64,000 nt of DNA from positions 1,536,001-1,600,000 of the forward strand of contig OY968796.1 in the NCBI GenBank assembly GCA_963695545.1, in the 5' to 3' direction. The notes beneath the pieces were generated by a model. That model searched no databases, was not told the origin of the DNA, and saw only the letters and a program-made list of their open reading frames with translations. Source of the stretch: Terriglobia bacterium (GTDB taxonomy: Bacteria; Acidobacteriota; Terriglobia; Acidiferrales; UBA7541). Position numbers and translations under genes: made by a program. Each line of letters starts with the position of its first letter. Position 1 is the stretch's first letter. Shown piece after piece: positions 45,267-63,477 of this stretch.

Positions 45267-47243
45267 ATGAGCGACTTTCAGATCGGCATCGGCGGCGCGG
45301 CAGGAGATGGACTCGACAAAGCGGGCGACACACTCGCGAAAACGGCTGCGCGTCTGGGCCTGTACGTCTACGCCTACAACAGCTATCAATCCGTGATCCG
45401 CGGCGGGCACATCTGGCTGCGCGTGCGCATGGGGCAGGAAAAAGTGCGCTCGCACGGCGACAACCTGAACGTGCTGATCGCGCTCAATCAGGACTCGATC
45501 GAACGCCACGCGCCCGAAGTGGATGCCGGCGGCGTCGTGCTATTCAATTCCGACAAGCTCAAGTGCAACATTCCGCTGCGCGAGGGAGTGACGCAAGCCG
45601 CGTTGCCCATTGGCGCGCTCACGAAACCATTCGGTCCGATGCAGCCGGTGATGCAGAACACCGTGGCGCTGGGAGCGCTGCTGTTTCTGGGGAATCTCGA
45701 ATTCGACGTGATCGCGGAAGTGCTGAATGACACGTTCGGTCATAAGGGCAAGCCGGTGGTGGACCAGAATGTGAATTTGGCGCGCGCGGGCTACGATTAC
45801 GCGAAAGAACATTTCAAGCCGCTGGCGCACAAGTGGAATTTCACGCGCAAGCGCCGGCCGTTCTTGACCGGCAATGAGGCCTTTGCGATTGCCGCCGCGG
45901 CTGCGGGATGCCGATTCTATTCGGCGTATCCGATGACGCCGGCTTCCGCGATTTTGCATTGGATGGCGACGCATGCCGAGCGCTGCGGCATCGTGGTGAA
46001 ACAGTGCGAAGACGAGCTTGCGGTTGCGAACATGGCGATCGGCGCTGGTTACGCGGGCGTGCGCTCGATGTGCGCGACATCAGGCGGCGGTTTTGCGCTG
46101 ATGACCGAAGCGATCGGCATGGCGGGAATGATCGAAGCGCCGGTGGTGATCGTGGAAGTGCAGCGCGGCGGACCTTCGACCGGCATTCCGACGAAGACCG
46201 AGCAGGCCGACCTGAATCAGGTGTATGGCGCCTCGCAAGGTGATTTTCCGCGCGTGATTATCGCGCCGCGCGACGTGGCCGATTGCTACGCGAGCACGGT
46301 GGAAGCGTTCAACTTGGCCGATAAATATCAGCTGCCGGTGATGCTTATCTCGGACTTATTGGTATCGGAGCATCCCGAAACGATCGAGCCTTCGGAGATG
46401 CCGGCCGATGTTCCGATTGATCGCGGCGCGCTGGTCACTTCGTGGGACAACTCGAAGGGCCGATTCAAGCGCTACGCTTTCACGAAGTCGGGCGTTTCTC
46501 CGCGGGCGCTGCCCGGCACGGCCAACACCATTCACGTTGCGCCGACGGACGACCACGACGAAGAGGGCGTGCTGATCAGCGACGTTTTTACGAATTCGGC
46601 GCTGCGACGGAAAATTTCGGAAAAGCGCATGAAGAAAGTGGATCTATTGCTGAAGGAATTGCCGGCGCCGAAGCTTGAAGGCCCGGCCGATGCCGAAGTT
46701 ACGCTGATTACCTGGGGCTCCACGCACGGCGTGGTGCATGAGGCAATCGGGCTGCTTGCCGCAGCTGGAATTCGCGCAAACCAATTGAACTTCAAGTATC
46801 TGCTGCCGTTCCACGCTCGCGAGGCCAAAGAAATTCTGAGCCGCACGAAGCGAACCATTTGCGTGGAAGCTAACTACACAGGTCAATTTGCGCGCCACTT
46901 GCGCGCCGAAACCGGTTTCTCGGTGAGCGATCAGTATTTGAAATACGACGGCGAACCGTTTGAGCCGCTGCAAGTCGTCGATCATGTGCGCGCGATTCTG
47001 GAAGGGCGGGAGCGCTCGCTTGACGTCACGCCGGCCGAAGCGCGCGAAATCGCTTATCACTATGTGCGCGTTCACCTGAACGAGGACTTGCGGCCCGGGC
47101 GCCTGGAGAAAGCTTCGGGCAACGGCGCGGGGGAAGAAATTTGGCGCGTTGAGATCGTGAACCGCGATTCGGGTGAAAAGCGCGGCGAGTTGCAGGTCGG
47201 CGTAGAAACAGGTTCCACGCATTCCTGGCAGGCGCTCGCGTGA
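45267..47243 (+). CDS. 2-oxoacid:ferredoxin oxidoreductase alpha subunit (gamma-alpha fusion)
   Basis: GGAAGDG, YQSVIRGGH, GNEA, YPMTPAS, EDE, ATSGGG, QRGGPSTG.PT. Confidence 0.93.
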   Translation: MSDFQIGIGGAAGDGLDKAGDTLAKTAARLGLYVYAYNSYQSVIRGGHIWLRVRMGQEKVRSHGDNLNVLIALNQDSIERHAPEVDAGGVVLFNSDKLKCNIPLREGVTQAALPIGALTKPFGPMQPVMQNTVALGALLFLGNLEFDVIAEVLNDTFGHKGKPVVDQNVNLARAGYDYAKEHFKPLAHKWNFTRKRRPFLTGNEAFAIAAAAAGCRFYSAYPMTPASAILHWMATHAERCGIVVKQCEDELAVANMAIGAGYAGVRSMCATSGGGFALMTEAIGMAGMIEAPVVIVEVQRGGPSTGIPTKTEQADLNQVYGASQGDFPRVIIAPRDVADCYASTVEAFNLADKYQLPVMLISDLLVSEHPETIEPSEMPADVPIDRGALVTSWDNSKGRFKRYAFTKSGVSPRALPGTANTIHVAPTDDHDEEGVLISDVFTNSALRRKISEKRMKKVDLLLKELPAPKLEGPADAEVTLITWGSTHGVVHEAIGLLAAAGIRANQLNFKYLLPFHAREAKEILSRTKRTICVEANYTGQFARHLRAETGFSVSDQYLKYDGEPFEPLQVVDHVRAILEGRERSLDVTPAEAREIAYHYVRVHLNEDLRPGRLEKASGNGAGEEIWRVEIVNRDSGEKRGELQVGVETGSTHSWQALA

Positions 47244-47265
47244 ATCGAATTCTAGGAGAAATCAC

Positions 47266-48147
47266 ATGGCCACGATCATAGAACTGCCGATTGAAACTTT
47301 CGCAGGACCCGTGGATCCGGATTGGTGTCCCGGGTGCGGGGATTTCGCCGTGCTGAAGGCGGTGAAGATGGCCGCGTCGAAAGCGGGCGTCGCGCCAAAG
47401 GATCTGGTCGTGGTATCCGGGATCGGCTGCTCATCGAACCTGCCGGGGTTTATCCATTCGTATGGCGTGCATTCGCTGCATGGGCGCTCGGTGGCTGTGG
47501 CATCGGGCATTCACTTGGCGAACACGTCGCTCAAGGTGGTGATTACGGGCGGCGACGGCGATGGCTACGGAATCGGCATCGGCCACTTCATCCACGCCAT
47601 GCGCCGCAATCTCGATATGACCTACGTGGTCATGAACAATCAGATTTACGGACTGACGACGGGGCAAGCTTCTCCCACGACGACCAAGGAGATGCGCACG
47701 AAATCCACGCCGCGCGGCAACGTCGAATTTCCGATCAATCCGCTCGCGCTGGCGCTGGTATCCGGCGCCACGTACGTGGCGCGCGCGTTCTCCGGCGAGC
47801 CGAACCACATGGCCGATTTGATCGCCGGCGGAATCCAGCACAAGGGCTTCGCGTTGATCGATGTTTTTAGCCCGTGCGTCACGTACAACAAGCTCAATAC
47901 ATACCCGTGGTTCAAGAAGCGCGTGTACAAGCTCGAGGATGAAGTCGGTTATCACACGGGTGACATGCGCGCCGCGTTTGAGAAATCGTTTGAATGGGGA
48001 GATCGCATTCCGCTCGGCCTGCTCTACGCCGATCAGCAGCCCACCTACGAAGACAGCGAGCCCGCATTCGCGCGCGGCCCGCTGGTTCATCAGCCGCTCG
48101 GCGTCGATCCGGCGGTGTTCCAGTCACTGATCGAAGAGTTGATGTAG
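47266..48147 (+). CDS. 2-oxoacid:ferredoxin oxidoreductase beta subunit
   Basis: WCPGCGD, SGIGCSS, HGR, GGDGD (TPP), NNQIYGLTTGQASPT, SPCVTYN. Confidence 0.94.
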   Translation: MATIIELPIETFAGPVDPDWCPGCGDFAVLKAVKMAASKAGVAPKDLVVVSGIGCSSNLPGFIHSYGVHSLHGRSVAVASGIHLANTSLKVVITGGDGDGYGIGIGHFIHAMRRNLDMTYVVMNNQIYGLTTGQASPTTTKEMRTKSTPRGNVEFPINPLALALVSGATYVARAFSGEPNHMADLIAGGIQHKGFALIDVFSPCVTYNKLNTYPWFKKRVYKLEDEVGYHTGDMRAAFEKSFEWGDRIPLGLLYADQQPTYEDSEPAFARGPLVHQPLGVDPAVFQSLIEELM

Positions 48148-48256: not shown

Positions 48257-48898
48257 ATGGCTACGAATACTGAAAGCCCGCGTTTCAGTTATACGCGATG
48301 GATCGGTGTGGTTTGCGGCTGGCTGCTGACGAAAATTGTGAATGCCGTCGCCGCCACGGGCATTAATCCGAATTTTCTGACGTTCCTCGCACTGGTCGTC
48401 AATTTTGGCGCGGCGACGCTATTTGCGCTGGGCAAGTTTCGCTCGGCGGCCGGCGTGATTCTGTTCGCCGCGTTTCTTGACATGCTCGATGGCCAGGTGG
48501 CGCGCCGCGAGAATCGGGTCACGGCGTTCGGGGCGTTTTTCGATTCGACGCTCGATCGCTACGCGGACATGTCGCTATACATGGGCTTGCTCGTTTATTA
48601 CGCGGTGAACGGGCGCTCGAAATATGTGGTGCTGGCCGCGGTGGCCACGGCCGGATCGGTGATGGTGAGTTACGCGCGCGCACGCGCCGAATCGCTGATA
48701 CCGACGTGCAAAGTGGGCTTTATGGAGCGGCCTGAGCGCATGGTGCTGCTGATGATGGGAGGATTTTTCAATCGCATGGCGCCGGTGCTGTGGGTGATCG
48801 CGGTGGTGGCGACGCTCACTGTGATTCATCGCATCGTGTACACCTGGCAAGAGACGCGAGCGGGCCGCACGATCCCCGGAATTCGCCTCAGTATGTAA
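48257..48898 (+). CDS. CDP-alcohol phosphatidyltransferase
   Basis: NPNFLT, DMLDGQVARR..GAFFDSTLDRYAD, SYARARAE, GFMERPER. Confidence 0.92.
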   Translation: MATNTESPRFSYTRWIGVVCGWLLTKIVNAVAATGINPNFLTFLALVVNFGAATLFALGKFRSAAGVILFAAFLDMLDGQVARRENRVTAFGAFFDSTLDRYADMSLYMGLLVYYAVNGRSKYVVLAAVATAGSVMVSYARARAESLIPTCKVGFMERPERMVLLMMGGFFNRMAPVLWVIAVVATLTVIHRIVYTWQETRAGRTIPGIRLSM

Positions 48899-48910
48899 CC
48901 GCGGCACAGC

Positions 48911-49723
48911 TCAGGACATTCGCGAATAGTATTCGTCGATCGGGCGTGCCACGATCTCGCGCACGCTGTCGCGCAGCGCTCCGAGATCTTTTTCCTTGTC
49001 GAGATTCGCGGTTTCGATCGTATCGTGCAGGTAAACCACGACCGGCCCGGGCCGCATTCCCCATCCCAACTTATTATTGAATTCAAACGAACCGACCACG
49101 CTGACCGGCACGATCGGCGTGCCGGTTTGTAGCGCCATACGGAAGACGCCGTTCTTGAACAATCCGACGCGGCCGGTGAGCGTGCGCTGGCCCTCGGGGA
49201 AAACCACCAGGCTGACGCCCGAGTCCAGCGCCTCTCTTGTTAGCCGCCACATGCGTTTCAAATCCGCCGGGCGATGCGTGGCCGGAACGGGCACATTGCC
49301 GAAGCGCTTCATCATCCAGCCATACGCCGGAATCTCGAAGTGCGATTCGAGCTCAAGCCCACGAATGAATTGCGGGACCGCGCAGTACAGCACGAATGGA
49401 TCGAACAAATTTACGTGGTTCACGATGAAAAAACTGGTGCGTGAGGGATCGAAACCCGGCGCTCGGAGCGTTTCGATTTTCGCGCCGGCCAGCCGCATCA
49501 AGTGCTGCGTAAACTTTCGCTGAGTGCGGTCATGTTTGCGCGGATTTACAAACAGCGCCTTGGTGATGATCCACAGACAAAACACGAAGAAATAAGCGCC
49601 GCACACGATCCAGTGATAGAAGCTGCGCAGGTTGGTGAAGAAACCGCGTTTTGGGCGCTGCACGGGGCAAGGGAAAGGCGGTGGCCATGGTGCGCTGGAG
49701 ATCGGCGGGCCGGAGGACGTCAC
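48911..49723 (-). CDS. Lysophospholipid acyltransferase (PlsC-like)
   Basis: NHVNLFD (HxxxxD), FPEGQRT, FKNG, PIVPV; GTG start overlaps upstream stop (GTGA). Confidence 0.9.
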   Translation of the reverse strand: MTSSGPPISSAPWPPPFPCPVQRPKRGFFTNLRSFYHWIVCGAYFFVFCLWIITKALFVNPRKHDRTQRKFTQHLMRLAGAKIETLRAPGFDPSRTSFFIVNHVNLFDPFVLYCAVPQFIRGLELESHFEIPAYGWMMKRFGNVPVPATHRPADLKRMWRLTREALDSGVSLVVFPEGQRTLTGRVGLFKNGVFRMALQTGTPIVPVSVVGSFEFNNKLGWGMRPGPVVVYLHDTIETANLDKEKDLGALRDSVREIVARPIDEYYSRMS

Positions 49724-50631
49724 GCCATCACGTCCAGCGCGGCGGGCAAAACGGTGATGCTCTTGCATCGCGTGGTGAGCACTTCGCCATCGACCATCAC
49801 GTCGACCGGCGCGCCCGCCTCGAATTCGATGCGCTGGACCGCGCGGCGCGACGCCAGCGGATGCTTGATGTGCGTGCCGTCAAACAGGGTCGGGAGATTC
49901 CAAATCAAACCCAGGCGGCTGATGGGGCCCCAGCGCACGTATTCAAGCAAACCGTCGTCGGTTTTCGCGTCGGGCGCGATCATCATTTTGCCGCCGGTGA
50001 ATTTGCTGTTGCTGAAGGAGAGAAACAGGCAGCGCCGGTGATCGGCGTCGGCGTCGCCGTCCGCACGCATCGGAAACGCGCGGCGGTCGAGCGTGGCGAG
50101 GCATGAGAGGACGCCGAGCACGTATCCGAAAGCGCCCAGGCGCTTGAAGCGGCGATTGGCGAGCGCGGCGACGTTGGCGGCGAAGCCCACGCTGACGATA
50201 TTGATGGAATAGGTCGCGCCGCCTTCGTGTTCGAGCATCACTACGTCGCAGGGACGTCGGCGCCCCTCGACGATTGCGCGGGCAGATTGACTCGCTCCGC
50301 CGTGAAAAAAATCGCGCAGGAAGGAGTTGCCCGTTCCGACCGGCAGAAAGCCGAGCGCGGGGCGCTCGCCGCCGATTGCGTCCGGGAGCAATCCATTCAC
50401 GATTTCATACGCGGTGCCGTCTCCGCCGACGGCGATGAAATTGCGCCAGCCCGCGGAGTAGGCCGCGCGCGCAAGTCCGGTGGCGTGGCCGGGGCGCGAA
50501 GTGTGGTGCTCTTCGATTTCAAGACCTTCGGAGCGCAGTTTTTCAAGCGCTGCGGGAGCGTGTTTGCGCGAGCGGCCGCCGCCGGCGGCGGGATTCACGA
50601 TGGCGAAGAATTTCTGTTTCGCTGCGTTCAT
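49720..50631 (-). CDS. Diacylglycerol/lipid kinase family protein (DgkB/YegS-like)
   Basis: [35 protein letters not shown] overlap with upstream gene. Confidence 0.92.
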
Positions 50632-52337
50632 ACCGCAACCACTTCGGATCGCGCGTGAGTTCGGCCGATCTCTTCGGCGAGAACCGTGCGCTTGATTTTG
50701 AGTGACGCCGTCCTTGGAAAGTCGCGGTCGTGGATCAGGTACCCGGCGATGCGCTTGTAATTGCGCAAGCGCTGATTACGCGCGGCGATATCGGCGCGCA
50801 GAGCGTCGTCCATCTCTCGGTCCGGTTCGAGGCGAATCACGATCACGAGTTCTTCGTCGGCCATGGTGTGCTTGGGCCACAAATAATTCGCGGCGAACAC
50901 GGAGAACTCCTTCACTGCCAGGCCCTCGAAGACGTTTTCGATGTCCTCGGGATAAATGTTTTTGCCTTCCGCCGTGACGATCATGTTCTTCTTGCGGCCG
51001 ACGAGTTGCAAGTGGCCTGCGTCATCGAGCTGCCCCAGGTCTCCGGTCATCAACCAGCCATCGACGATCGTTTCGGCGGTGAGCTCGGGATCGTCCAGAT
51101 AATGCGACATCACGGTTTTGCTGCGGACCGCGACTTCGCCGACGCCTTCGGCGTCGGGATTCGCAATGCGCACTTCCATGCCGGGCAACGCGCGGCCGAC
51201 GGTGTCCGCGCGAAAAGGCTTGAAGTCGTTCACGGTTACAGCCGTGCCAGCTTCCGTCAGGCCGTAGGCGTTGGCCACGGGAATTCCGAGATCGTAGAAG
51301 AATTGCAGCGTCGCCGGCTCGGTGAAAGCGCCACCGACGAACAGCGCGCGCAATTCGCCGCCGAACGATTCGTGCACTTGCTTGAGCAGGCGCCGGCTGA
51401 TCTCGACGTTGGGCTGGCTCCGCGTCAACCCGCGATTCGCGCGTATCAGAGTGTTCAGCATCAGGCGTTTCGCTTTCGATAGCTCAGCGAAACGCGCGCG
51501 CAGGCCTTTTTCCAGATTCTTCAGAACGAGCGGCACCAGCGTCATGTAGGTGATCTTGTAGCGCACGAATGCGTCGCGCACGTATTCGGGGCGCAGCGTG
51601 CGCAAATGCACCACGCAGGCGCCGCAGGTGAACGGGCCAATGAAGCCGACCATGAAATCGATCGCGTGATTCGTCGGCAGAATCGAGAGATAGCGCACGC
51701 CCGACCAGAAGGGAAACAGCGCCGTGAGCGCCATGCACTGCTCCAGATAGTTCTCGTGCGTCATCACGCAACCCTTGGGCCGTCCGCCGGTGCCGGACGA
51801 GTAGACGATTGAGGCCGGGTCTTTGCGTGCGCGCGGGCGAAATTCGGGTTCGCCTGCGCCCACGCACTCTTCCCAGCGGCGCGCACCGAAAAGCTCGGCG
51901 TTCGGCGGCGCTTCCGTGACGAGGACGAGCGGCAACGCGCGCGCGCCGAACGATTTTGATTCGGCGATCGCGCGCCACAGCGGATATTCGACAACGAGCA
52001 CGCTGGCCTTGGAATGCGCCAAGAGTTGCAGATGCTCTTCTGGAGTGAGTTTGTAATCGAGCGGCACGAGCACTCCGCCGCAATAAAAAATGGCGTAGGC
52101 CGAAATGAGCCACTTCGATTGGTTGGTCATGATGATCGCGGCGCGATCGCCGGCGGCGAAGCCGGCCTGTTCGAGGCCGGCGGCGAGCGGCAGCGCGATC
52201 TGTTTGAATTGCGCGTAGGTGAGCCGCGCGCGTTCGCGATCGCGATCGGCTTCGATCAGGCACACTTCTTCGGGCCAGCGATCGAGCGCGGCGCGCAGGG
52301 CTTCGCCCAGGCAGGAATATTGTTTCAGGTCCAGCAT
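50628..52337 (-). CDS. Long-chain acyl-CoA/acyl-ACP synthetase (AMP-binding)
   Basis: [32 protein letters not shown]. Confidence 0.92.
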
Positions 52338-52382
52338 CGGCAATCGGAAATTTAGTTTTTCCCGCCTCGCGTCGCGCTGCGA

Positions 52383-52808
52383 TCAGGCGTTGAGCTTGGC
52401 CGTCATGGTGATCTCGGCCTTCAGCAGGCGCGAGATGGGGCAGCCGGCTTTGGCGTTCGCGGCGGCTTTATCGAACGCGGCTTGGCTCGCGCCGGGAATG
52501 CGCGCGACGACGTCGAGGTGAATCTTGGTGACCGTCCAGCCGGCTTCGATTTTTTCGAGCGTGACGGCGGCGGAAGTTTCGAGGCTTTCCGCCGTGATTC
52601 CGGCTTCGCCGAGCTGCGCCGAAAGCGCCATCGTAAAACATCCGGCGTGAGCGGCGCCGATGAGCTCTTCGGGATTCGTGCCGCGGACGCCTTCAAAGCG
52701 CGTGGCAAATGAGTACGGCGTGTTCGATAGCGCGCCGCTTTCGGTGGAAATCGTTCCCTTGCCTTCCTTGAGCGATCCCTTCCAGACTGCTGAGGCTTTG
52801 CGAACCAT
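52383..52808 (-). CDS. osmC: OsmC family peroxiredoxin
   Basis: YSFATRFE, TNPEELIGAAHAGCF, AKAGCPIS; GGAGG RBS. Confidence 0.93.
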   Translation of the reverse strand: MVRKASAVWKGSLKEGKGTISTESGALSNTPYSFATRFEGVRGTNPEELIGAAHAGCFTMALSAQLGEAGITAESLETSAAVTLEKIEAGWTVTKIHLDVVARIPGASQAAFDKAAANAKAGCPISRLLKAEITMTAKLNA

Positions 52809-52889
52809 GATGTTTCCTCCCTATTCGATTTGATATGAACTGTTCGTATCGGATTCAATCAAGCTAACTCGCCGCATCGGACTCAACGT

Positions 52890-53132
52890 TTACAGCCGGG
52901 CCTGAATGCGATCAGCGAGTGTGCGGAAATCGCTGACGCCTTGCACTTCGTAATCCGGCAACTCGATGCCGAAGTGGCTTTCGAGGCGCGAGAGCAATTC
53001 GAGCGCCTGAAGGCTGTCAATTTTGAGTTTGCGATAAAAATCGTCGTTCGGCGAAAGCTGCTCGCGCGGCACTTTGAAATGCGTCGCGGCGAGATCGAGA
53101 ATTTCACCGGTGGTCTGGTCGAGTGTTCTCAT
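52890..53132 (-). CDS. Acyl carrier protein
   Basis: 80 aa; IDSLQALEL phosphopantetheine Ser motif; LESHFGIELPD. Confidence 0.9.
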   Translation of the reverse strand: MRTLDQTTGEILDLAATHFKVPREQLSPNDDFYRKLKIDSLQALELLSRLESHFGIELPDYEVQGVSDFRTLADRIQARL

Positions 53133-53197
53133 TGTGCATCCGATCTCATCTTAATTTCTGGGCGCCCAATCTTATCGCAGCTTTCTGCGCCCGTCTC

Positions 53198-54001
53198 TTA
53201 CGGCAGATAGGGATGCGCGTCGGTGCTTTCGACGAACTTACGCAAGGCTTCCATCACTGCTGGCCGGCCGAACAATTCGCAAAAAATCTCCGTTTCGCGC
53301 CGCAATTCCTCGAGCGGAATTGGTTTCGCAAATTTCTTGCAGACCGCGCTGGTGTGCCGGTCGTATTTCAGCACTTGCGCCGCGGTGGTGCGCGCGAGAC
53401 GCAGGGCTTCGCCTTCGGCGGCCACTTGGCTTACGAGGCCGACGGACTGCGCCTTCGCCGCGTTGATGCTGCGGCCGGTGAAGAGCAGATCGCGAACGAC
53501 TGCGTTTCCGACGTCGCGCCGCAGCCGCGGGATACCGCCGAAGCCCGGAATGATTCCGAGGCGCAACTCCGGAAACGCGAACCGCGCCATCTTGTCGGCG
53601 ACGATGAGGTCGCACGTCAGAGCCAGCTCGAAGCCGCCGCCGAAGCAGATGCCGTGGACGGCCGCAATCGTCGTGAGGGGCGACGCGTCGATCGAATTCG
53701 CGACGTGGTGGACGCGCAGGATGAACGCGCGCATGCTTTCCGCACGCGCTTGGCCTTCGGTTGCAACCGACAGGCGATACAGCTCGCGTAAATCGCCGCC
53801 GGCGGAAAATCCTTCTTTGCGGCTGCTGTAAATGATCAGCGCCGCCGCATGCGATTCGAGTTCCGGCAGCGCATGCACCAGGCGCTCGAGTTCCTCGAGC
53901 ATCGCCGTGCCGATCTCGTTGCAGGGAGCGTAGTGCAGCTCGACTTCAACGATGCCACCGGAGAGTTTCCAGGAAAGCGTTTTGCCTTTGAAATCATGCA
54001 T
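53198..54001 (-). CDS. Enoyl-CoA hydratase/isomerase (crotonase) family protein
   Basis: FSAGGDL, AAVHGICFGGGFELALTCD, PELRLGIIPGFGG. Confidence 0.92.
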   Translation of the reverse strand: MHDFKGKTLSWKLSGGIVEVELHYAPCNEIGTAMLEELERLVHALPELESHAAALIIYSSRKEGFSAGGDLRELYRLSVATEGQARAESMRAFILRVHHVANSIDASPLTTIAAVHGICFGGGFELALTCDLIVADKMARFAFPELRLGIIPGFGGIPRLRRDVGNAVVRDLLFTGRSINAAKAQSVGLVSQVAAEGEALRLARTTAAQVLKYDRHTSAVCKKFAKPIPLEELRRETEIFCELFGRPAVMEALRKFVESTDAHPYLP

Positions 54002-54035
54002 GGATTTCGTGTGAATCCCTAATCTCGCGCATCGC

Positions 54036-55715
54036 TCATACGGCCGCGGTTTCGGCTTTCTTTTGATACATGGCTTCAATTTCCGCGCGGAATTGCGCGG
54101 AGATCGCGTCGCGTTTGAGTTTTCCATTTGCGGTCAGCAGTCCGGATTCGATCGTGAAAGCCGCCGGCTCGATGTGCAGCGCGCGAATCTGCTTGTAGTG
54201 CGGCAGCCCGCCATTGATGCGCTCGACTTCCGCTTCCGCCAATCGCCGCTCGATGGGCCCAGCGATGATCGCGGAAAGATAGCCGCGCCCGTTGCCGACC
54301 AAAACGACTTGTGCGGCGCCGGGAACCGAAAGCCGCAAGTCTTCTTCGATTGGCTCGGGCGCGATATTGTGGCCGGAATTCAAAATGATCAGGTTCTTGA
54401 TTCGTCCGACGATCCGCCAGTTGCCGGCTTCGTTGACTTCGCCCTGATCTCCGCTGTGGAACCAGCCTTCGCGCAGAACCTTGGCGGTTTCCTCCGGCCG
54501 ATTCCAATATCCAGGAAAAATATTCGGGCCGCGCACCAGAATTTCCTGGTTCGGGCCGATTTTCATTTCAACGCCAGGGACGGCGGGGCCGACAGCGCCC
54601 GGTTCGACGCGGCGCGGATCGTCCATCGTGCAAATGGCGGTCGTTTCCGTGAGGCCGTAGACCTGCAAAACGGGTATGCCCAGCATTTCAAAAAATCGCT
54701 GCGTTTCAGAGGCCAGCGGCGCCGAACCGCAAATCAGCGCGCGCAGATTCGATCCCAGCCGTTTGCGGATCGCAGGAAAGATCACCAGGCGCGCGAGCGC
54801 CAGGCGAAAAGCGCCGCCTCGCGTGCCGCCGCCGGCGGTGCGCGCGAACCATTCTTGTTTTGCGCCTTGATAAGTGCGCAGAATCATCCCGCCGCGTTTT
54901 TTCAGATTGTCTTCGATTCCGGTGCGCATGCGCTCGAGCAGCGTCGGAACGTTCAGGAAATAATCGGGCTCGGCCTTGGGAATGTCGTCGGCCAGACGCG
55001 CGAGATCTGTGGAAAGCGTCAGAACGCTGGGCCGCGACAAACACGAAAGCAGAAGAATCCACGAGCCGGCGAAGCAAAACGGCAAATAGTGAAACACGCG
55101 ATCGGCGCGCCGCGACGGGCCCATCAACAAATCGAGGCGCGCGCCGGTGCAGCTGAGCATGTGATCGAGATTGCGGCAATTCAATTGCACGCCCTTGGCT
55201 TCGCCCGACGTGCCCGACGTGTAGATGATCGTGACGATGTCGCTGGGTGCGAGAGGCGCAAGCGACGGCGTGTCGGCCGAAGCTGGCGCCGAATCGGATG
55301 GCGCGGGACGCGCGAAAATTTCGTCGAACAAAATGCGCCGCGGCGCTTGCGGCCACGCAGCCGCCAGGCCGTCGCCGAGCGCCGCATCGCCCGCGAAAAT
55401 CAGCGTGGGCTGCGCGTCGCGGAGCATGGCTGCCAACTCCGCCGGCGCCTGCCGCGCGTAGAGCGGCACGGTCACGATGCCTTCAGCCATCAGCGCGAGA
55501 TCGAGCGCCACCCAGCGAATGCTGTTCGGCGCGACGATCGCGCAGCGGTCTCCGCGCGAAAGCCCCGCCGCGCGAAGATACGCGCGCGCCTCGGCGGTCA
55601 ATGCCAAAAGCTCGGCGCCAGTGACGGAGACCACGCCTTCGGCACGCGCTTCCCGGAGCACCGGTTGGCCGGCAGCGCGGCGCAAATTCTCGAATATGCG
55701 TTCCAGGAAGGTCAC
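54036..55715 (-). CDS. Long-chain acyl-CoA synthetase (AMP-binding), second copy
   Basis: IYTSGTSGEAKG, YGLTE, SGDQG, GRIK, GHNIAPE; GTG at 55715 overlaps upstream stop. Confidence 0.92.
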   Translation of the reverse strand: MTFLERIFENLRRAAGQPVLREARAEGVVSVTGAELLALTAEARAYLRAAGLSRGDRCAIVAPNSIRWVALDLALMAEGIVTVPLYARQAPAELAAMLRDAQPTLIFAGDAALGDGLAAAWPQAPRRILFDEIFARPAPSDSAPASADTPSLAPLAPSDIVTIIYTSGTSGEAKGVQLNCRNLDHMLSCTGARLDLLMGPSRRADRVFHYLPFCFAGSWILLLSCLSRPSVLTLSTDLARLADDIPKAEPDYFLNVPTLLERMRTGIEDNLKKRGGMILRTYQGAKQEWFARTAGGGTRGGAFRLALARLVIFPAIRKRLGSNLRALICGSAPLASETQRFFEMLGIPVLQVYGLTETTAICTMDDPRRVEPGAVGPAVPGVEMKIGPNQEILVRGPNIFPGYWNRPEETAKVLREGWFHSGDQGEVNEAGNWRIVGRIKNLIILNSGHNIAPEPIEEDLRLSVPGAAQVVLVGNGRGYLSAIIAGPIERRLAEAEVERINGGLPHYKQIRALHIEPAAFTIESGLLTANGKLKRDAISAQFRAEIEAMYQKKAETAAV

Positions 55716-57202
55716 CGCGTTCCTGTCGCCGCGCTTGTCGAACTCGTTGCCGCGCTTGACGTCGCACCGATCGCGTTTGTCGTTGCCGATGCCGCGGGTT
55801 CGTAGGCGTCGATGAGCGCGCGCAGCCCGGGAGAAAGCGGCGGCAAATATTCTTCCCAATGATGCACGCCGGTGCGCACGGGAAATTCCGGATAGCGCGT
55901 ATGCACCTGGCGCTCCAGGAAGACGCCCATGCGCGCCATCACTTTTAGATTGCGCACCACGGTCACGCGAATGGCCTCCCGGATGGAATCTTCGTCGCGC
56001 ACCATCGTCTCCATGGCCTCGATAAGTTTTTCGTGGAGCTGCGGATCGTCCACCGTAAGCATTAGATGATTGTGGCCGCGCTCGCGCATCATGTTGCGGA
56101 TGCGTTCGTCCATCGTGACGCCGACGGAGACCACGCCTGCCGGCATCGAGCTGACGATGCCGTGATAGCGCGAGGAAACCATCCAGCGCGCGCAGCGCAC
56201 GATGCTCACGAGCTGGAACATATCGTAATGATCCGCCGCGAAAATCGGCGCCGGAACCTGCGGCGCGATCGCGTGGCAGGCGCGCTCGTCGAGACTTTCC
56301 ATGGCCACCAAAATGGTGAAAACGTCCTGGCGCGAGCGGAACGCATTCACGGCAATGGCCAGCTCGTCGAGATAGCGCTTGTAGGCGCGATCCACATCTG
56401 CGCCCGATTTGTGAAAATAGATCGTGCGGTAGTGGCTCTCTTTGTACGCCCCGAATAGCGTTCGCGCGAGCCACTTCGGGATCGAGGGTGTCACCGGCCA
56501 CCAGAATGGATTGATCGGGCACACGGCCAGCACGGGTTTGCGGCCGTCCCATCCGGCGTCGATCAACACTTTTCGTCCATATTCCGGGCCGTGCGGCTCG
56601 AAGGTCCATGCGGTATCGGTGCCCAGTTCAGTGGGCACGCCGAGCTCGCTCAATATCGCCTGCGATTCTTCGCTGCGCGGAATCACCAGCGAGCGGCTGC
56701 AATACCGGCGCACCATTTTCTCGAGCATGGGGTCCATCTCGCCGGCATCGCCGCCGTAGCCGACCGAAAGTTTGTTCTGCGCAGCGGCGATTCCAAGCGA
56801 ACCGATCATCATGGTCGTGAGCGCGCTCGCGAATTTGCTCTTGAACATCGAGCCTTCGCACGCCACCACGCCGTGATGTCGCGGCACTTCGCGGCGAAGA
56901 AACGGCGGGAAAATATCGGGCAGATGAACTTGTCGCGCGTCGCCGAAATATCCGCGTGAAAGCTCGAAGTTCTGCGTCATCACGGCGAGTTCCAGGCGCT
57001 CGGCGCCCAGCACCTGGCGCACCTGGCGCAGGATTTCGTGAACGCGCAAATCAGAGCCGGTGTTGCGCGTGCCGTTGTAGCCCGCAAAAAGCAATTTAAG
57101 CGGCTCGCCCGGCTGCCACGGCCGGCCCGCGCCGAGCATCCAGCCAAGCCGCGCCCGCTCGATGATCTCGCTGACCCACACCTCGAGAACGAAATCCATC
57201 AT
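55712..57202 (-). CDS. Polysaccharide pyruvyl transferase-like protein
   Basis: [15 protein letters not shown] and VSSRYHG resemble CsaB/WcaK-family end motifs; ATGA overlap with upstream gene. Confidence 0.65.
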
Positions 57203-58368
57203 GGGCGGCCACCTCCACCAATCGAATGCGCCGGCGCGATCTGCGCGGCCGGCCAGGGCCCGGACCAATCGCGGTAAGGATACGAGAAACGGTGCTCCAC
57301 ACTAAAGCGAAACAATGGATGGCAGTAGGTTGAAAACGGAGCGGGGGCGCGACCCATTTCCGCGACCACGCGCGTGTTGTCGAATACCGTGTTCCACGTG
57401 AGATACGGCCAAAAAACTTTCAGCAACGACGCGCCGCGGCCGATTCCGCTTCGCGATCGAGCGAGGCGCGTGATCAGTCCGTTCGCCGGCGATTCAAGGC
57501 CAGGCCAATAGACCGGCGGCATTTTTCCCGCGGCGCGCGAAAGCGTGCTCGTCAATTGGCGGAACGTTTCGGAGCCAGTGCCGGAAGAAAGATGATAAAT
57601 CTCGTGCTCGGGCCGCGGCTTCTGGTGCAGCGCGACGACGGAATCGGCCACGTAATCCACCGGAACGATATCGATGCGGTCGTCGGGGCGAAACGGCAGC
57701 ACCGGCAATCGCGCCAGAAAAACGAACGCGCGCACCATGTCGAACTGCGTGGTCTCAGGCCTGCGGCTATCTCCCAGCACGATGCTGGGCCGAAAAACCG
57801 TGCGCGGAACATCGGGCAACAATTCGCGCACCATGTGCTCGCAGAATTTTTTGGTGCGCGCGTAGGGATCGTAGTCCGAACGATTCCAATCGATTGAGGC
57901 GTCCTCGGTGACGATTTCGCGATTGCGCTCGCCGCACACGGCCACGGTACTGATTTCGCTGAAGCGCCGCAGCCCGTGGCCCGCGGCCGCGCGCCGCGCA
58001 AGCTGGATGACTTCGAGCGTGCCGCGAAGATTTACGTTCAGGCAGGTTTTCTCGGATTTGCGATTGAGCGAAGCCGCGCAGTGGATCACGGAATCGGTGG
58101 TGTCCGTAAGCCGGCGATAATCGGCGTCGTCCAGGCCGAAGTGCGCGTCGGTCAAATCGCCGCGAAAAATAGCGATGCGCGTGGCAAGCGCTTCGGCGAA
58201 CGCGTCGCGCTCCATATGCAATTGCAGCGCGCGCCAAAGCTTGCCGGATGCATCCGGCGAATCTTTCGCGCGCACCAGCACGTTCAAGCGCTCGTCGTGC
58301 CGCTCGAGCAGGCGCGCCGCGATGTGCCCGCCGATGTAGCCGGTCGAGCCGGTCAGGAAGAGGGCCAT
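57199..58368 (-). CDS. Extended SDR, thioester/fatty acyl reductase-like
   Basis: [27 protein letters not shown] (YxxxK), RPSIVLG, VPVDYVA. Confidence 0.88.
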
Positions 58369-60824
58369 GTGGCGTTGGAAACGGGAGCGGATCCCGCGGG
58401 GCCGGGACCGCTAAGCGGCGCGGACGAGTCGGCGCCGGAATCGGGCTCACCGCCCAATCGGAACTGGCGCCGCGGCGTCGGCTCGGGCGCGCGGCCTTCG
58501 ATCAGCGGATAAACCCACTTTCGCAGAGCGGGAATGTGAATCTGAATCCAATATTCCCACCAGTCGATCGAACGCGGCTCGTAACCAAACACAGCGCGCT
58601 CGGATTCCGGCAGCTCGGCCGAAAGCAATTCGACGTTATCGCACTCGAATACCTGCTCGTTGTGCAGGATGAACGGCTCGTACAATTCGATCAGCTTTTC
58701 CACGCGCGCGAGGTCGCGCTCCTGGCGGGCCAGCGGCGGCTTCTTGAATTGCAGCGCCGAGGCCGCGCGATTGATGCCTTTCACCACAGCCTTCTGTGCC
58801 GGCACGGAAAGTTTCTGATAGCGATTCTTGGAAACCGGGATGGTTTCAAATCGCAGACGCATCCAGTGTTCCAGTCCCTGCTGCGCGCGGTAATGCTTAC
58901 GGTGTGCAAGGCCGGTGAGTTCGATCGAGCGACCCATATCGCACGGGTTGGCGGCGGACGTGGCCAGTTGATAAAGCGGCGCGTTGCGGCGCAGCACCAG
59001 AGCCGCGGCGATCAGCGTCATACCGTGGCACACCATGTCGACGGGAATGATGTCCAGGCACTTGCGCGCGTTGGTCGGCAACTGGCGAAAATATGTTCCG
59101 AGCAGATAAGAGAGCGGCGCCGACGTATTGATCCCTTCGTTCCAGCCGGAGAAAGGCTCCGCGGTCGAGGTCTCGACGATCGATGGCCGCACGACTGCAA
59201 TCGGCAGGCCTGCGCCGCGCCGCACGATCAGCGATTCGGCCAGGCTCTTTGTGAACGTGTAGGTGTTGGGCCAGCCCAGATGCCGCGCGCGCCGCGTGCC
59301 GGCGCGCGTCAGGCGATTGCGCAGCCAGCGCGTGCGGTTTTTGCGAATTTGCGTTTCGAGTTCCGCGCCCGGAGGCAGCGCAGTCTGGCGCCGCCGGCCC
59401 AGCACCTGGCGCTCGAGCGCGCCGCGCAGCTCCGGGCTTTCCGAGCGCGCTTCCGCGTTGCGCACCAACTCGCGGAGCTGCTGCCATTCCTGCTCGGCGT
59501 TGAAATCCTCCACGCCCACCGGCGTGTAATTGGGCGTCAATTCTTCGCTGACGCGGCCATCGCGCCCGCCCACGGCGTAACACGTGGAAAGATGCATCAA
59601 CGCGGCGTGACCCGATTCGCGCACAAACTCGATCACGTTGGCCACGGCCTCGACGTTGCTCGCGAGCGCTTCGCGCAGATCGGGATTGAAATCCGTGAGC
59701 CCCGAACTATTCACCACCACGTCCAGCGTGCGCGCGAGACGCTCGCGCACTTCGGGCGCCAAGCCCAGGCCGGGTTTCCCGACGTCGCCCTCGACGACCT
59801 CGACGTGCTCGCGCAGAAATTCCGCAAAGTTCGCGCCCAGTTTCTCTTCGAGCGGCTCGAAAACCGGAGATTCCTCGGCGATTTTCTCGAAGCGCCGCTC
59901 GGCCGTTGTGCTGCGTTGCCGGCGCACCAGCAGCGAAATCTTGCCGATTTCCGGCAGATTGATCAGCAGGTGCTCGAGCCACACTTTGCCGATGAAGCCC
60001 GTGACGCCGATGAGCAGAACGTGTTTGCCGGCCAGCGCACGGCGCACGGAGAGCGGCTCGACGCGCGTCTTCGGGCCAAACATCACGACCGGCAGATGAT
60101 TCGCAGGCGCGGGCCGCGCCGCTGGCCGGATGGCGTCGCGCATTTGTTCGGCGCCGATCAATCCGGTGGAAGTTGACTTCGTGCGCAACCCTCGGGCCAC
60201 GCGCTCGGCGTCCCATCGCCCGTCGGGTTTTCGGCCGCCGAAAATCGCCGACGGCCCGCGCGGCAAAACAATCGGATCGAGCAATCGGCCGGTCGCGACG
60301 CCGTCGCGAAATTCCAAGCGATTCGAGATGATTCGGTCAACGCCGAGATGTTGCGCAAGCGGCCGCATGATGTGGTCAAGCGCCTGGCTGACGAGCACTA
60401 CATCGCCATGCTGCTCGATAATTTTCTGGAGTTGCGCCACGCCGGCGGGACGCAAGAGCGGCTTCAGCACGTATTCAAAATATTCTTCGCCGAGCAGATC
60501 CAGTCGATCGCGGCTGATTCCAGCCAGAAGCGTGTGCACCACGCGTGTGGCGAAAACGCGATTCACAGCGTAGAGCAGCGGACGCAGCAAGCTCAATAGC
60601 AGCGTGGCCGCGTGGCGCGCCCAGCGCTGGGCAAAACTCTGCGCGTTCCACGCGAGATAGGTGATCGCGCGGAGCGAGTTCAGGTCCAGCAGGCTGCCCT
60701 CGACGCGCCAGTAGGTTGGCGAGGGCGCCGTCTCCGGCGGGCCTGCAGACGCAGCGCCCGAGGCGCGGGGCCCCCGGCCGTTGGACCGTTCAGAATGCCC
60801 GGATTGTGTGTCGGATTGACTCAA
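58353..60824 (-). CDS. Fusion of degenerate HAD-like domain and fatty acyl-CoA reductase (male-sterility type)
   Basis: N-terminal [29 protein letters not shown]-terminal [45 protein letters not shown] on minus strand at 60859-60854. Confidence 0.85.
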
Positions 60825-60973: not shown

Positions 60974-62149
60974 TTAGGCGTCGGCCTTGCGGGCCGCGGA
61001 CTGCTGTTTCAAGGTCGCGCCAAGCTCGGCGTTCAAGAGTTCACCGAATCGAACGCAGCCGACCAGTTGGCCGGAGGGCTCGGCAATGTCCGCGGTGCGG
61101 AATCCCCGTTCAAGGACGCGGTCGAGCGCCGATTCAATCGCGGCGGCCTCGTTCGTAAGGCCCAGGCTTTCCCCGAGCAGCATCGCCGCCGAAAGGATTG
61201 AGCCAATCGGGTCGGCCACGTCTTTACCCGCCAGCGTGGGCGCTGAACCGTGAATGGGCTCGTAGAGCGAGGGGCCCGAGCCCAGGCTCATTGACGGGAT
61301 CAGGCCGATCGAGCCGACCAGTGCCGCCGCGCCGTCGCTCAGAATATCGCCGAACATATTCGAGGTCACGATCACGTCGAATTGCGATGGCGCCAGCACC
61401 AATTGCATGGCCGCGTTGTCCACGTAAAGGTGCTCGAGCTTTACGTCCGGGTGCCGCGCCGCCAAACGCGTCACCGTGCGCCGCCACAACGCCGAGCTTG
61501 TGAGCACGTTGGCCTTGTCCACCGAGGCCAGCCGCCGCGTGCGCGCTTCGGCGCGCGCAAATGCGTATTGCGCCACGCGTTCGATCTCGGGTGTGGTGTA
61601 GGTCTCCACGTCCCAGGCGCGCTCCACACCGTCGACGGTCTCGTGGCCGTGCTCGCCGAAATAAATTCCGCCCGCGAGTTCGCGCACGATTTCGATATCG
61701 ATCGAGCGCGCTCGCTCCGGCCGCAGCGGCGAAATTCCGGCCAGCGCCGCGCGCAGCCGAATCGGCCGCAGATTGATGTAAAGCCCCAGGCCCTTGCGCA
61801 GCGCGAGAAGTCCTGACTCGGGCCGCTTGCCAGAGGGCCGCGTGTCCCAGCGCGGTCCGCCGACCGCGCCCAGCATGATCGCGTCGGCTTCAAGGCAAGC
61901 CGCGAGCGTGGTGGCAGGCAGCGGCTCGCCGTCGGCTTCGATTCCGGCGCCGCCGAAGGGCAGCTCGGTGAAATCGAAATTTAGTCCGCTCTCGGAAGCG
62001 CAAGTTCGCAAGACGTCGGCGGCCACGCGCGTCACTTCCGGGCCGATGCCGTCGCCCGGCAAGAGCACGATTTTCTTGGGTCGCACAGAGGCTTTCGGTT
62101 TCGCGCTGAGGGCCGCGCTTGGGCTTGCGCTGATGGTTTGCGCGGTCAT
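60974..62149 (-). CDS. leuB: 3-isopropylmalate dehydrogenase
   Basis: [54 protein letters not shown]. Confidence 0.95.
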
Positions 62150-62179
62150 GTGCGGGTTCGGAGTGTCGGTCGCCGCGGC

Positions 62180-63376
62180 CTAGGAAGCCGCGCGCGCGTC
62201 GTCGGGCAGCGTGGTGAAAATTCGCTTGCGAATCACTTCGTGCGCGATGGCCAGCAAGTCGCGCTGCTTTACGTGTTTGGATTCATCGGCCAGCGCATTG
62301 ACGCGGCGATAGCATTCGGCCAGCTCTTCATCGGTCGGCTCATAGCCGAATTCTTTCAGATTGGCGCGCAGCGCATTGCGTCCGGAATGTTTGCCCACCA
62401 CAAGTTGCCGCGAGGGCACGCCCACCGCTTCCGGCGAAAGAATTTCATACGTGAGCGGATTTTTCAGAATGCCGTCCTGATGAATCCCGGCCTCGTGGGC
62501 AAACGCATTCGCGCCGACCACGGCTTTGTTTGGAGGCACGGAAACGCCCGTGACTTCGCTCAACATGCGGCTGGTGGCGTAGAGTTTCTCAAGGTTCAGA
62601 TTCGTTTTTACGCCGAAGCTTACCGAGCGCACGGCCAGCGCCGCGGCGATTTCTTCCAGCGACGCATTGCCGGCTCGCTCGCCGATTCCATTGATCGTGC
62701 ATTCCACCTGACGCACGCCCGCGCGAACCGCCGCCAGTGAATTCGCCACGCCCAATCCCAAATCGTTGTGGCAATGCGCGCTCCAGGTGATTCCAGCGGG
62801 ATCGCCCAAGCGTTCGCGCACGCTCGTGAACATTGCGGCGTATTCTTCGGGAACAGCGTAGCCAACCGTGTCCGGCAGATTGATCACCGTCGCGCCGGCG
62901 CGGATGGCCGCTTCTACCGTTTGCGCCAGAAATTCCAAATCGCTGCGGCTCGCGTCTTCGGCGGAAAATTCCACTTCCTCGCAATGTTTCCGGCCGTAGG
63001 ACACCATCGTGGAGATGGCTTCAAGCGCCTGCTCGCGCGAAAGGCGCAGCTTGTGATGCAAATGCAGATCGGAGGTGGCGAGGAAAATGTGCAGGCGCGC
63101 ATGCCGCGCCGGAGCCAGCGCCTCAAGCGCCGCGTCCACGTCCTCCCGGCGCGCTCGCGCCAGCGCCGCTACGCGGCAGGTCGTGATCTCCGACGCGATC
63201 GTCCGTACCGCGTCAAGATCCCCACGCGAAGCGATCGGAAACCCGCCCTCGATCACATCCACGCCCAAATCCGCCAGTTGACGCGCCAGGCGCAGCTTCT
63301 CCGGCACGGTCATCGAAAAGCCGGGCGATTGTTCTCCGTCGCGCAGCGTGGTGTCGAAGATTTGAATGTGGTCCAT
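62180..63376 (-). CDS. leuA: 2-isopropylmalate synthase, short form (no regulatory domain)
   Basis: DTTLRDGEQSPG, LPDTVG, HCHNDLG, GIGERAGN, AHEAGIHQDG, GKHSG; ends at 398 aa. Confidence 0.88.
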   Translation of the reverse strand: MDHIQIFDTTLRDGEQSPGFSMTVPEKLRLARQLADLGVDVIEGGFPIASRGDLDAVRTIASEITTCRVAALARARREDVDAALEALAPARHARLHIFLATSDLHLHHKLRLSREQALEAISTMVSYGRKHCEEVEFSAEDASRSDLEFLAQTVEAAIRAGATVINLPDTVGYAVPEEYAAMFTSVRERLGDPAGITWSAHCHNDLGLGVANSLAAVRAGVRQVECTINGIGERAGNASLEEIAAALAVRSVSFGVKTNLNLEKLYATSRMLSEVTGVSVPPNKAVVGANAFAHEAGIHQDGILKNPLTYEILSPEAVGVPSRQLVVGKHSGRNALRANLKEFGYEPTDEELAECYRRVNALADESKHVKQRDLLAIAHEVIRKRIFTTLPDDARAAS

Positions 63377-63477
63377 TTTGGTGTGTCGCGAGCGCCCAAG
63401 GGCGCCGTGTACCCGGTCGAGGTGTGTAGTCTGAGGGCGGCCAGACACCAAGTCCAATTTATATTACTTGTAATCCC

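Follow-up and report, generated by a model that had tools for sequence, protein, structure and literature searches.

A two-module lipid operon of uncultured Acidobacteriota built around a pyruvyl-transferase-family enzyme: a candidate route to ether-type phospholipids

The closest described relatives of the locus considered here are the ether-lipid systems of myxobacteria. The elb operon of Myxococcus xanthus encodes ElbA and ElbE, both of the NAD epimerase family, the HAD-like protein ElbB, the unknown protein ElbC, and ElbD, in which fatty acyl reductase (FAR), acyl-CoA synthetase, acyl carrier protein (ACP) and acyltransferase are joined in one protein (passages of PMC9131029). In the parts of the literature drawn on here, the candidates named for ether formation are ElbD, AGPS and PlsA/Ger-type proteins only, and the steps leading from fatty acid to alkyl ether are described as unknown even in Myxococcus (PMC9131029, PMC10087280, PMC13159169). 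Elb-like clusters in which elbD is split between the reductase and the A domain have been described in work on sponge symbionts that covers Acidobacteriota and Poribacteria (passages of 10.64898/2026.06.23.733905). Here we report on an operon at positions 48257-60824 of a stretch of 64 000 nucleotides from a Terriglobia bacterium (contig OY968796.1; the whole stretch is called the window below). The system is kin to elb, ketosynthase-free and lipid-making, and its core is a different, undescribed module around an enzyme, g3, of a family that transfers units from phosphoenolpyruvate (PEP). We tentatively propose, rating the chance as somewhat short of even, that this one two-module operon would make an ether-type phospholipid from existing fatty acids, by way of a fatty alcohol and PEP transfer.

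Open reading frame (ORF) reading, with Pfam and NCBIfam scans, places ten co-oriented genes on the minus strand at 48911-60824, with an eleventh converging on them. In the following list the counts that close a line give presence in genome loci and in metagenome loci, respectively, drawn from 74 loci found in a scan of one genome per species and from 80 metagenome loci; only loci long enough to judge are counted, and a gene was scored at a tblastn identity of at least 40%.

g1, 58353-60824, minus strand: HAD domain (PF12710, 53.9 bits; about 60180-60713) and FAR (NAD_binding_4, 181 bits, and Sterile, 39 bits; about 58455-60062), fused in one ORF; HAD 65/65 and 39/41, FAR 65/65 and 45/47.
g2, 57199-58368, minus strand: stand-alone thioester-reductase-type short-chain dehydrogenase/reductase, SDR (NAD_binding_4, 157 bits); 68/68 and 64/64.
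g3, 55712-57202, minus strand: PS_pyruv_trans family (PF04230, 30.2 bits, cut-off 25.3; CsaB model, 58 bits, cut-off 213).
g4 (AMP1), 54036-55715, minus strand: adenylating enzyme of acyl-CoA-ligase type (AMP-binding and AMP-binding_C_3); 72/72 and 53/56.
g5 (ECH), 53198-54001, alternative start 54127, minus strand: crotonase/enoyl-CoA hydratase; 63/70 and 36/39.
g6, 52890-53132, minus strand: ACP (PP-binding, with the DSL serine present); 64/68 and 34/36.
g7, 52383-52808, minus strand: OsmC-family peroxiredoxin (TIGR03562, 200.7 bits); 3/69 and 4/38.
g8 (AMP2), 50628-52337, minus strand: AMP-binding adenylating ligase; 62/66 and 34/36.
g9 (DAGK), 49720-50631, minus strand: YegS/DgkB-type lipid kinase (DAGK_cat and YegS_C; TIGR00147, 134.8 bits, above cut-off); 61/65 and 28/30.
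g10 (PlsC), 48911-49723, alternative start 49768, minus strand: PlsC-type acyltransferase with HX4D and FPEG motifs; 59/65 and 24/26.
g11 (PIPS), 48257-48898, plus strand: CDP-alcohol transferase convergent with g10; 53/63, always convergent, and 19/23.

A sequence-only reading of the window had described the same ten genes and their domains, with many overlapping stops and starts, no ketosynthase, and a CDP-alcohol phosphatidyltransferase converging 12 bp away, and had suggested co-conservation of the cluster as a check; each of these points held. Five junctions overlap: g1/g2 by 16 nt, g2/g3 and g8/g9 at ATGA, g3/g4 at GTGA, and g9/g10 probably at GTGA (start 49723), otherwise by 49 nt (start 49768). 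The GTG start of g4 overlaps the stop of g3, and candidate starts give lengths of about 496 aa for g3 and 559 aa for g4; the longest ORF of g1 begins with TTG at 60824, and its true start is uncertain. Twelve bases (48899-48910) separate the stop of g10 from that of g11, which resembles phosphatidylinositol-phosphate (PIP) synthases, and the Pfam scan gave no ketosynthase among the cluster genes. In nearly all of the 74 and 80 loci the nine genes other than OsmC are kept in order and strand, running HAD-FAR, SDR, g3, AMP1, ECH, ACP, AMP2, DAGK and PlsC, followed by the convergent g11. Such an arrangement is far beyond chance, and this near-complete conservation, together with the overlapping starts and stops, marks the genes as a single operon.

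Two claims of the same reading fell away in this comparison. OsmC, taken there for a pathway member, occurs only in the closest relatives of the window, so that it is a local insert and not part of the system, i.e. a recent insertion into the operon of the window's close kin. The OsmC gene carries its own Shine-Dalgarno-like GGGAGG and sits between the ACP gene and that of the second ligase. The extra genes, read as tailoring enzymes, turned out to be the most strictly conserved core (g2-g5). The cluster in fact splits into two modules, A (g1-g5) and B (g6, g8, g9 and g10). Five loci (L024, L029, L043, L069 and L045) have only g1-g4, in L045 with ECH as well, and lack module B; three others (L032, L064 and L065) have the ACP-AMP2-DAGK-PlsC block on the opposite strand, in an upstream position. 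The least conserved neighbour is g11, which is absent where module A stands alone.

Kinship with elb was assessed with Archangium violaceum P0218 and other Cystobacterineae homologues standing in for the ElbD of M. xanthus. The FAR part of g1 matched, over at least 89% of its length, fused proteins of ElbD type that are 1440-1600 aa long (34-39% identity), among them proteins of Archangium, Hyalangium, Anaeromyxobacter and a Pyrinomonadaceae metagenome-assembled genome (MAG). Against six ElbD-type proteins it scored 302-370 bits (36-38% identity), g8 scored 219-259 bits (28-33% identity), g4 146-174 bits and g10 41-47 bits, and the best matches to the Archangium stand-in within the window's genome were g1 (FAR, 311 bits) and g8 (A domain, 267 bits). 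By similarity, then, g8 corresponds to the A domain of ElbD, and it is presumed to be the loader of the ACP g6. The domains of ElbD are spread over four genes here (g1, g8, g6 and g10) and do not form a single polypeptide. A quick tree built by maximum likelihood from 47 reductase domains placed 13 g1-type FARs in one clade (support 99) and all 22 sampled ElbD-type FARs in another (support 96), both far from g2; since g2 was the only stand-alone outgroup, the description 'sister to ElbD' is an unrooted one. The g1 clade lies beside, not inside, the ElbD clade, so the operon is kin of elb and not a recently split copy of it. As judged from these comparisons, the link to ElbD is real but partial. 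The idea of a split ElbD toolkit was right as to the homology of the FAR and of g8 to ElbD parts, and the HAD domain is related to ElbB besides; the operon is, however, not simply ElbD cut up, and its reductase forms a clade of its own.

The g1 FAR carries, besides NAD_binding_4 and Sterile, the motifs GVTGFIGK and YTFTK as read in its translation, and it matched the fatty acyl-CoA reductase of PDB entry 7eoz with 154.6 bits; by family criteria it is predicted to be an alcohol-forming (Male-sterility-type) reductase. The HAD domain fused to it is 31-35% identical to the proteins at the ElbB position of five acidobacterial elb loci (28% to the HAD match of L102), and it has in common with ElbB-type proteins an N-R-L-E-F...A-T-G-R-L-L stretch. 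Motif I reads [F/Y]-W-R-V-E-G-S in 66/66 g1-type domains as against Y-D-L-E-G-T in 5/5 of ElbB type, the nucleophile Asp being replaced by Arg in all 66, and the region holding the motif III Lys (A-T-K) and motif IV (D-S-x-S-D) of the ElbB type is missing or changed. Because the nucleophile and motifs III and IV are lost, the domain is most likely not a phosphatase; ligand binding or a scaffold are candidate roles.

Eleven acidobacterial loci with a fused ElbD were compared with the operon. In one of them, L096, the order HAD, Lar_N (PF09861) protein, ElbD-type protein and Epimerase mirrors elbB-C-D-E, and on this gene order the ElbC and ElbE positions were equated with the M. xanthus genes. 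We considered g3 as the ElbC counterpart and rejected it, since it is not similar to the ElbC-position protein of L096, a member of the Lar_N family; g2 was likewise rejected as the ElbE counterpart, as it has only a Rossmann motif in common with the Epimerase-family protein of L096. With the L096 Lar_N protein as query there was no match in the window's genome, and counterparts of the ElbC-position (Lar_N) and ElbE-position (Epimerase) genes were not found in the cluster. The operon thus resembles the M. xanthus system in having FAR, adenylating ligase, ACP, PlsC-type acyltransferase and ElbB-type HAD parts and no ketosynthase, and both use existing (iso-)fatty acids. It differs in having its domains on separate genes and in a different order, in the distinct clade of its FAR, in a HAD domain fused to the FAR with catalytic motifs lost, and in the missing Lar_N and ElbE-type proteins. 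To the elb toolkit it adds the PEP-transferase-family enzyme, a second ligase, a crotonase and a thioester reductase. Like the acidobacterial and poribacterial clusters of 10.64898/2026.06.23.733905, as far as the available passages describe them, it has ElbD parts beside phospholipid-assembly genes; the word 'pyruvyl' is absent from that text and its passages do not mention the module g2-g5, and its figures and supplements may show more.

Another explanation is that this is an elb-type system as in Myxococcus, in which the split ElbD parts (g1 FAR, g8, g6 and g10) and the kinase make 1-O-alkyl glycerolipids through the ether-forming step of the myxobacterial system and g2-g5 are accessory, only supplying or trimming acyl chains or decorating the product. 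The homology of the FAR, A domain, acyltransferase and ElbB-type HAD to elb parts would fit this explanation, as would the DAG-kinase homologue that 7 of the 11 acidobacterial elb loci have next to their fused ElbD and the elb-like clusters in which a split elbD has acyltransferase, DAG kinase and CDP-alcohol transferase neighbours (passages of 10.64898/2026.06.23.733905). We nevertheless consider it unlikely. Its supposed accessories g2-g4 show the strictest conservation of all the genes (68/68 for g2, 72/72 for g4) and can stand without module B, and fusion proteins, described below, tie FAR to g3 and g3 to g4. The cluster moreover has neither the ElbC-position nor an ElbE-type gene, the g1 FAR clade falls outside the sampled ElbD clade, and the g1 HAD is without nucleophile and motifs III and IV.

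Homologues of the fused ElbD are frequent in other acidobacterial families, and full-length forms were found in 56 other Acidobacteriota genomes among 401 searched, G049, which is unpublished, being included in the count; the tallies of g3 and of fused ElbD over the 401 genomes also take in the unpublished genomes G152 and G024. Mutual exclusion of g3 and fused ElbD was considered and discarded, as a distribution of 0/15 versus 56/386 has a chance of about 1 in 10 even if the genomes are treated as independent and is no evidence for it. Two further genes of the window's own genome, outside the window at G000:C1 about 1340500-1343000 (minus strand) and 1350600-1352930 (plus strand), combine two ElbD-like parts, an A domain (200 and 81 bits) and an acyltransferase (57 and 47 bits), and have no FAR; proteins of this kind, about 900 aa long, occur widely in the phylum.

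The close relatives of g3 number in the thousands, nearly all of them unnamed or from Acidobacteria MAGs; clustering at 50% leaves 807 representatives of the family (E <=1e-3), or 224 at E <=1e-30. An alignment of 58 members reaching down to 26% identity (A1) has R53, G150, R176, D196, P236, D305, H347 and D365 invariant and R345 and R367 nearly so. The N-terminal motif G-Y-x-G-x-x-N-x-G-x-D, which we take to be a hallmark of the pyruvyl-transferase family, is present in g3. Comparison with Escherichia coli WcaK by hhalign (probability 97%, E 1.2e-10, 259 columns) brought R176, G-T-D-T-A-W, R345-x-H347 (R-L-H in WcaK) and R367 (Lys in WcaK, at H+20) into aligned columns. The PEP-binding residues shown or docked are R148, R306, H308 and K328 in CsaB and R217, R337, H339 and K361 in Pvg1p (passages of PMC10435577 and PMC4872226). 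With R176, R345, H347 and R367, g3 matches the spacing of the CsaB and Pvg1p PEP sites, the mapping from WcaK to CsaB being made by motif and spacing and not by direct alignment. Since the residues of this site are kept, g3 very probably still uses PEP.

The AlphaFold model of g3 (pLDDT 94.8) has the GT-B fold and scores Z 16.7 against Pvg1p (5ax7), with a root mean square deviation of 3.6 over 255 aligned residues, at rank 29. Pvg1p was not singled out among GT-B folds by Foldseek and VIA. Like CsaB of Paenibacillus alvei, WcaK and Pvg1p, g3 combines a PF04230 match, the GT-B fold and four basic residues at the PEP site. It departs from the ketal-pyruvyl transferases of PF04230 in having about 100 more residues and additional helices at both termini, in falling below the CsaB equivalog cut-off, in lying in a lipid operon and in being fused to FAR or ligase in other lineages. 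No glycosyltransferase, flippase, sugar-nucleotide or polysaccharide gene was found in the cluster, its immediate flanks or the conserved neighbourhood, and a glycan made at this locus can therefore be excluded as the acceptor of g3. In other Acidobacteriota, at L189 9952-11505 (minus strand) and L190 9985-11604 (minus strand), distant paralogues of g3 (37-41% identity) lie in unrelated surroundings without FAR or ligase neighbours, one of them divergent from a gene for a patatin-like phospholipase.

Relatives of g3 of unusual length yielded five fusion proteins, in all of which the ten conserved g3 residues are kept:

P0394, 1014 aa: NAD_binding_4 and Sterile, then g3 domain; three contigs, NCBI record, Pseudobacteriovorax MAG.
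P0398, 923 aa: NAD_binding_4 and Sterile, then g3 domain.
P0249, truncated protein: the same FAR and g3-like junction.
P0299, 967 aa: g3 domain, then AMP-binding and AMP-binding_C_3 ligase; one contig.
P0397, 1348 aa: ligase and ACP, then g3 domain, 52% identical to g3; four contigs.

The g3 domains of P0394 and P0398 are 44-45% identical to g3, and the ligase of P0299 is nearer to g4 (255 bits) than to g8 (124 bits). These architectures link FAR, g3 and the g4-type ligase functionally, and the order within the fusions is that of the operon. In P0397 a PilZ domain (residues 376-469, 32 bits) is inserted in the adenylation domain, which hints at control of the lipid pathway by cyclic di-GMP in that organism.

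From the enzyme families we infer the substrates and products, the sequence of reactions beyond g3 and the nature of the head group, as follows. The g1 FAR would reduce a fatty acid, the activation and loading of which would fall to g8 and g6, to a fatty alcohol, on which g3 would put a PEP-derived, carboxylated three-carbon unit, O-alkyl enolpyruvate being the most likely product. The new carboxylate would be activated by g4 as CoA thioester, the resulting 2-substituted acryloyl-CoA would be hydrated by g5, and reduction of the thioester by g2 would give a monoalkyl-glycerol-like product. This would be phosphorylated by g9 and acylated by g10, for which the ACP g6 and the ligase g8 would provide the chain, after which g11 would probably provide an inositol phosphate head group.

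The families of the remaining enzymes may be set beside these steps. The best solved relative of g2 is the terminal thioester reductase MxaA (4u7w, 100 bits), an enzyme of four-electron reduction. Among solved structures, g4 comes closest to malonyl-CoA synthetase (135 bits), a ligase of small acids, and to FadD13. In an alignment to 3-hydroxybutyryl-CoA dehydratase (5jbw) both catalytic Glu positions are kept in g5, whose solved relatives include 3-hydroxypropionyl-CoA dehydratase; crotonases hydrate methacrylyl-CoA. The proteins encoded by g9, g10 and g11 belong to standard phospholipid-assembly families. For g11 the scores with NF040950 (157.7 bits, cut-off 180) and NF045883 (126.7 bits, cut-off 170) are both below cut-off, but the CDP-alcohol motif D-x2-D-G-x2-A-R...D-x3-D is present and the nearest relatives of solved structure are the PIP synthases of mycobacteria and Renibacterium, so that g11 looks like an enzyme of the (archaetidyl/phosphatidyl)inositol-phosphate synthase type. 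A gene for inositol-1-phosphate synthase (MIPS) lies elsewhere in the window's genome.

A more specific form of the proposal, which we place on the unlikely side, is that the glycerol backbone of the ether lipid would come from PEP and not from glycerol-3-phosphate or dihydroxyacetone phosphate (DHAP). Here g3 would form a 2-alkoxyacrylate, g4 its CoA thioester and g5 2-O-alkyl-glyceroyl-CoA; a four-electron reduction by g2 would lead to 2-O-alkylglycerol, to be taken on by g9, by g10 with g6 and g8, and by g11 with inositol phosphate. An analogy in chemistry is offered by MurA/MurB, where a PEP-derived carboxyvinyl ether is formed on an alcohol, UDP-GlcNAc, and then reduced (for MurA, passages of PMC10435577), and which differ from the operon in an unrelated fold and family, a sugar-nucleotide acceptor and the lack of CoA activation. 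The FAR1-GNPAT-AGPS route to 1-O-alkyl-DHAP of eukaryotes and myxobacteria likewise ends with a FAR-derived alcohol ether-linked to a three-carbon backbone (passages of PMC9131029), but the backbone there comes from DHAP, whereas that of the operon is proposed to come from PEP. No match to an AGPS-type family was given by the Pfam scan of the cluster genes; no AGPS search of the genome was made.

Several observations weigh against PEP transfer to a fatty alcohol. By fold, g3 is a generic GT-B protein, to which glycosyltransferases, UDP-GlcNAc 2-epimerases and PimA are closer (Z 20-21) than Pvg1p (16.7), and the A1 profile, compared with PDB sequences, gave no pyruvyl transferase and matches at chance level only (E >=0.06). 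We know of no precedent in PF04230 for an enolpyruvyl ether on a single alcohol, known members making cyclic ketals on sugar diols. The fusions show functional linkage, not step order or chemistry. The crotonase is missing in 7/70 genome loci, and module B is missing or moved in the eight loci named above. Finally, the route from PEP puts the ether on C2, and the ethers known from cultured Acidobacteria are reported as 1-O-alkyl.

The habit of the family of working on diols suggests a different lipid, in which a 3-hydroxyacyl thioester, made by g4 and g5 or taken from fatty acid synthesis, would be reduced to an alkane-1,3-diol on which g3 would close a cyclic pyruvate ketal, the head being processed further. 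The known PF04230 enzymes form 4,6-ketals, i.e. they act on a 1,3-diol (passages of PMC10435577), the crotonase and four-electron thioester reductase families seen in the operon would make a plausible route to such a diol, and the FAR+g3 and g3+g4 fusions fit equally well. A pyruvylated diol lipid nonetheless appears distinctly improbable to us, as it would leave the kinase, PlsC and the PIP-synthase-like gene without obvious substrate and oblige the FAR to accept 3-hydroxyacyl chains, and no such lipid was found in the literature searched. The fold of g3 raises a further alternative: one of its best structural matches (Z 20.7) is PimA, which transfers mannose to phosphatidylinositol, and with the PIP-synthase-like gene adjoining the operon in 53/63 loci, g3 might be a GT-B transferase pyruvylating or otherwise decorating the phosphatidylinositol head group made by the neighbouring synthase, the reductases serving some other end, with their fatty alcohol or aldehyde going, for example, into wax, signalling or storage. 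This we regard as very improbable, given that the PIP-synthase-like gene shows the lowest conservation among the neighbours and does not accompany a lone module A, that the fusion partners of g3 are FAR, CoA ligase and ligase-ACP and no head-group enzymes, and that the Pfam scan found no wax synthase in the cluster. Our proposal remains PEP transfer to a fatty alcohol, held with the reserve stated at the outset.

The operon is patchy in its phylum, g3 occurring in 15/401 of the Acidobacteriota genomes searched and in 13/228 genera, and all of the 74 species-genome loci are from uncultured MAGs. In peat and soil metagenomes it is common, with more than 565 contig matches among those listed. The matches listed in the alignment-based metagenome scan were close relatives (64-96% identity), so that it supplied no deep contexts. 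Copies of g3 that are 62-70% identical to that of the window were found in L009, L029, L030, L043, L060 and L066, the deposited labels of which are Verrucomicrobiia, Bacillota, Binataceae, Clostridia, Saccharimonadales and Dormiibacterota MAGs, respectively. This is the same range of identity as among acidobacterial copies, for which reason these are likely to be mis-binned acidobacterial contigs rather than cases of transfer. In 3 of the 154 loci (L024 13198-14937, L029 3117-4850 and L069 10602-12170), where module B is missing, the g4 homologue is followed by a gene for a radical-SAM protein of 579 aa with a weak match to TIGR04013 (B12-binding/radical SAM). The window's genome has a 70%-identical copy at G000:C1:1767122-1768774, about 170 kb away and outside the window. 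Radical-SAM enzymes make membrane-spanning lipids in other organisms.

The source genome is a single contig of 4.16 Mb, estimated to be 93.8% complete, in which the operon is flanked by unrelated housekeeping genes. Upstream, at 60974-63457 (minus strand) and 150 bp from the longest g1 ORF, lie leuB (isopropylmalate dehydrogenase) and a leuA/homocitrate-synthase-like gene; leuB adjoins the operon in about 34/74 genome loci, which may be plain synteny among relatives. Leucine is a precursor of iso-branched fatty acids. On the other side, an alpha/beta pair of 2-oxoacid:ferredoxin oxidoreductase genes (45267-48147, plus strand) ends 110 bp before g11 on the same strand; such a pair stands beside the operon in 0/74 genome loci. 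A scan for promoters and terminators gave counts no higher than in shuffled sequence.

We found no account of this operon, or of a PEP-dependent step in ether-lipid formation, in searches of the literature on ElbD and ether lipids, Acidobacteria, pyruvyl transferases and enolpyruvyl ethers. These ether lipids underlie the branched glycerol dialkyl glycerol tetraether (brGDGT) proxies used for palaeoclimate, and the operon offers a concrete set of soluble enzymes, the predicted first step of which, the release of phosphate from PEP in the presence of a fatty alcohol, is easy to assay. Should the PEP reading be wrong, the operon still points to a lipid, so far undescribed, of soil bacteria that are abundant and uncultured. 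If it is right, there would be a new route to the three-carbon backbone of membrane lipids and a new class of acceptor for a family of glycan-modifying enzymes; and if the backbone itself comes from PEP, this would be a third bacterial way to alkyl-glycerol ethers, independent of oxygen and of flavin, and a new type of reaction for the pyruvyl-transferase family.

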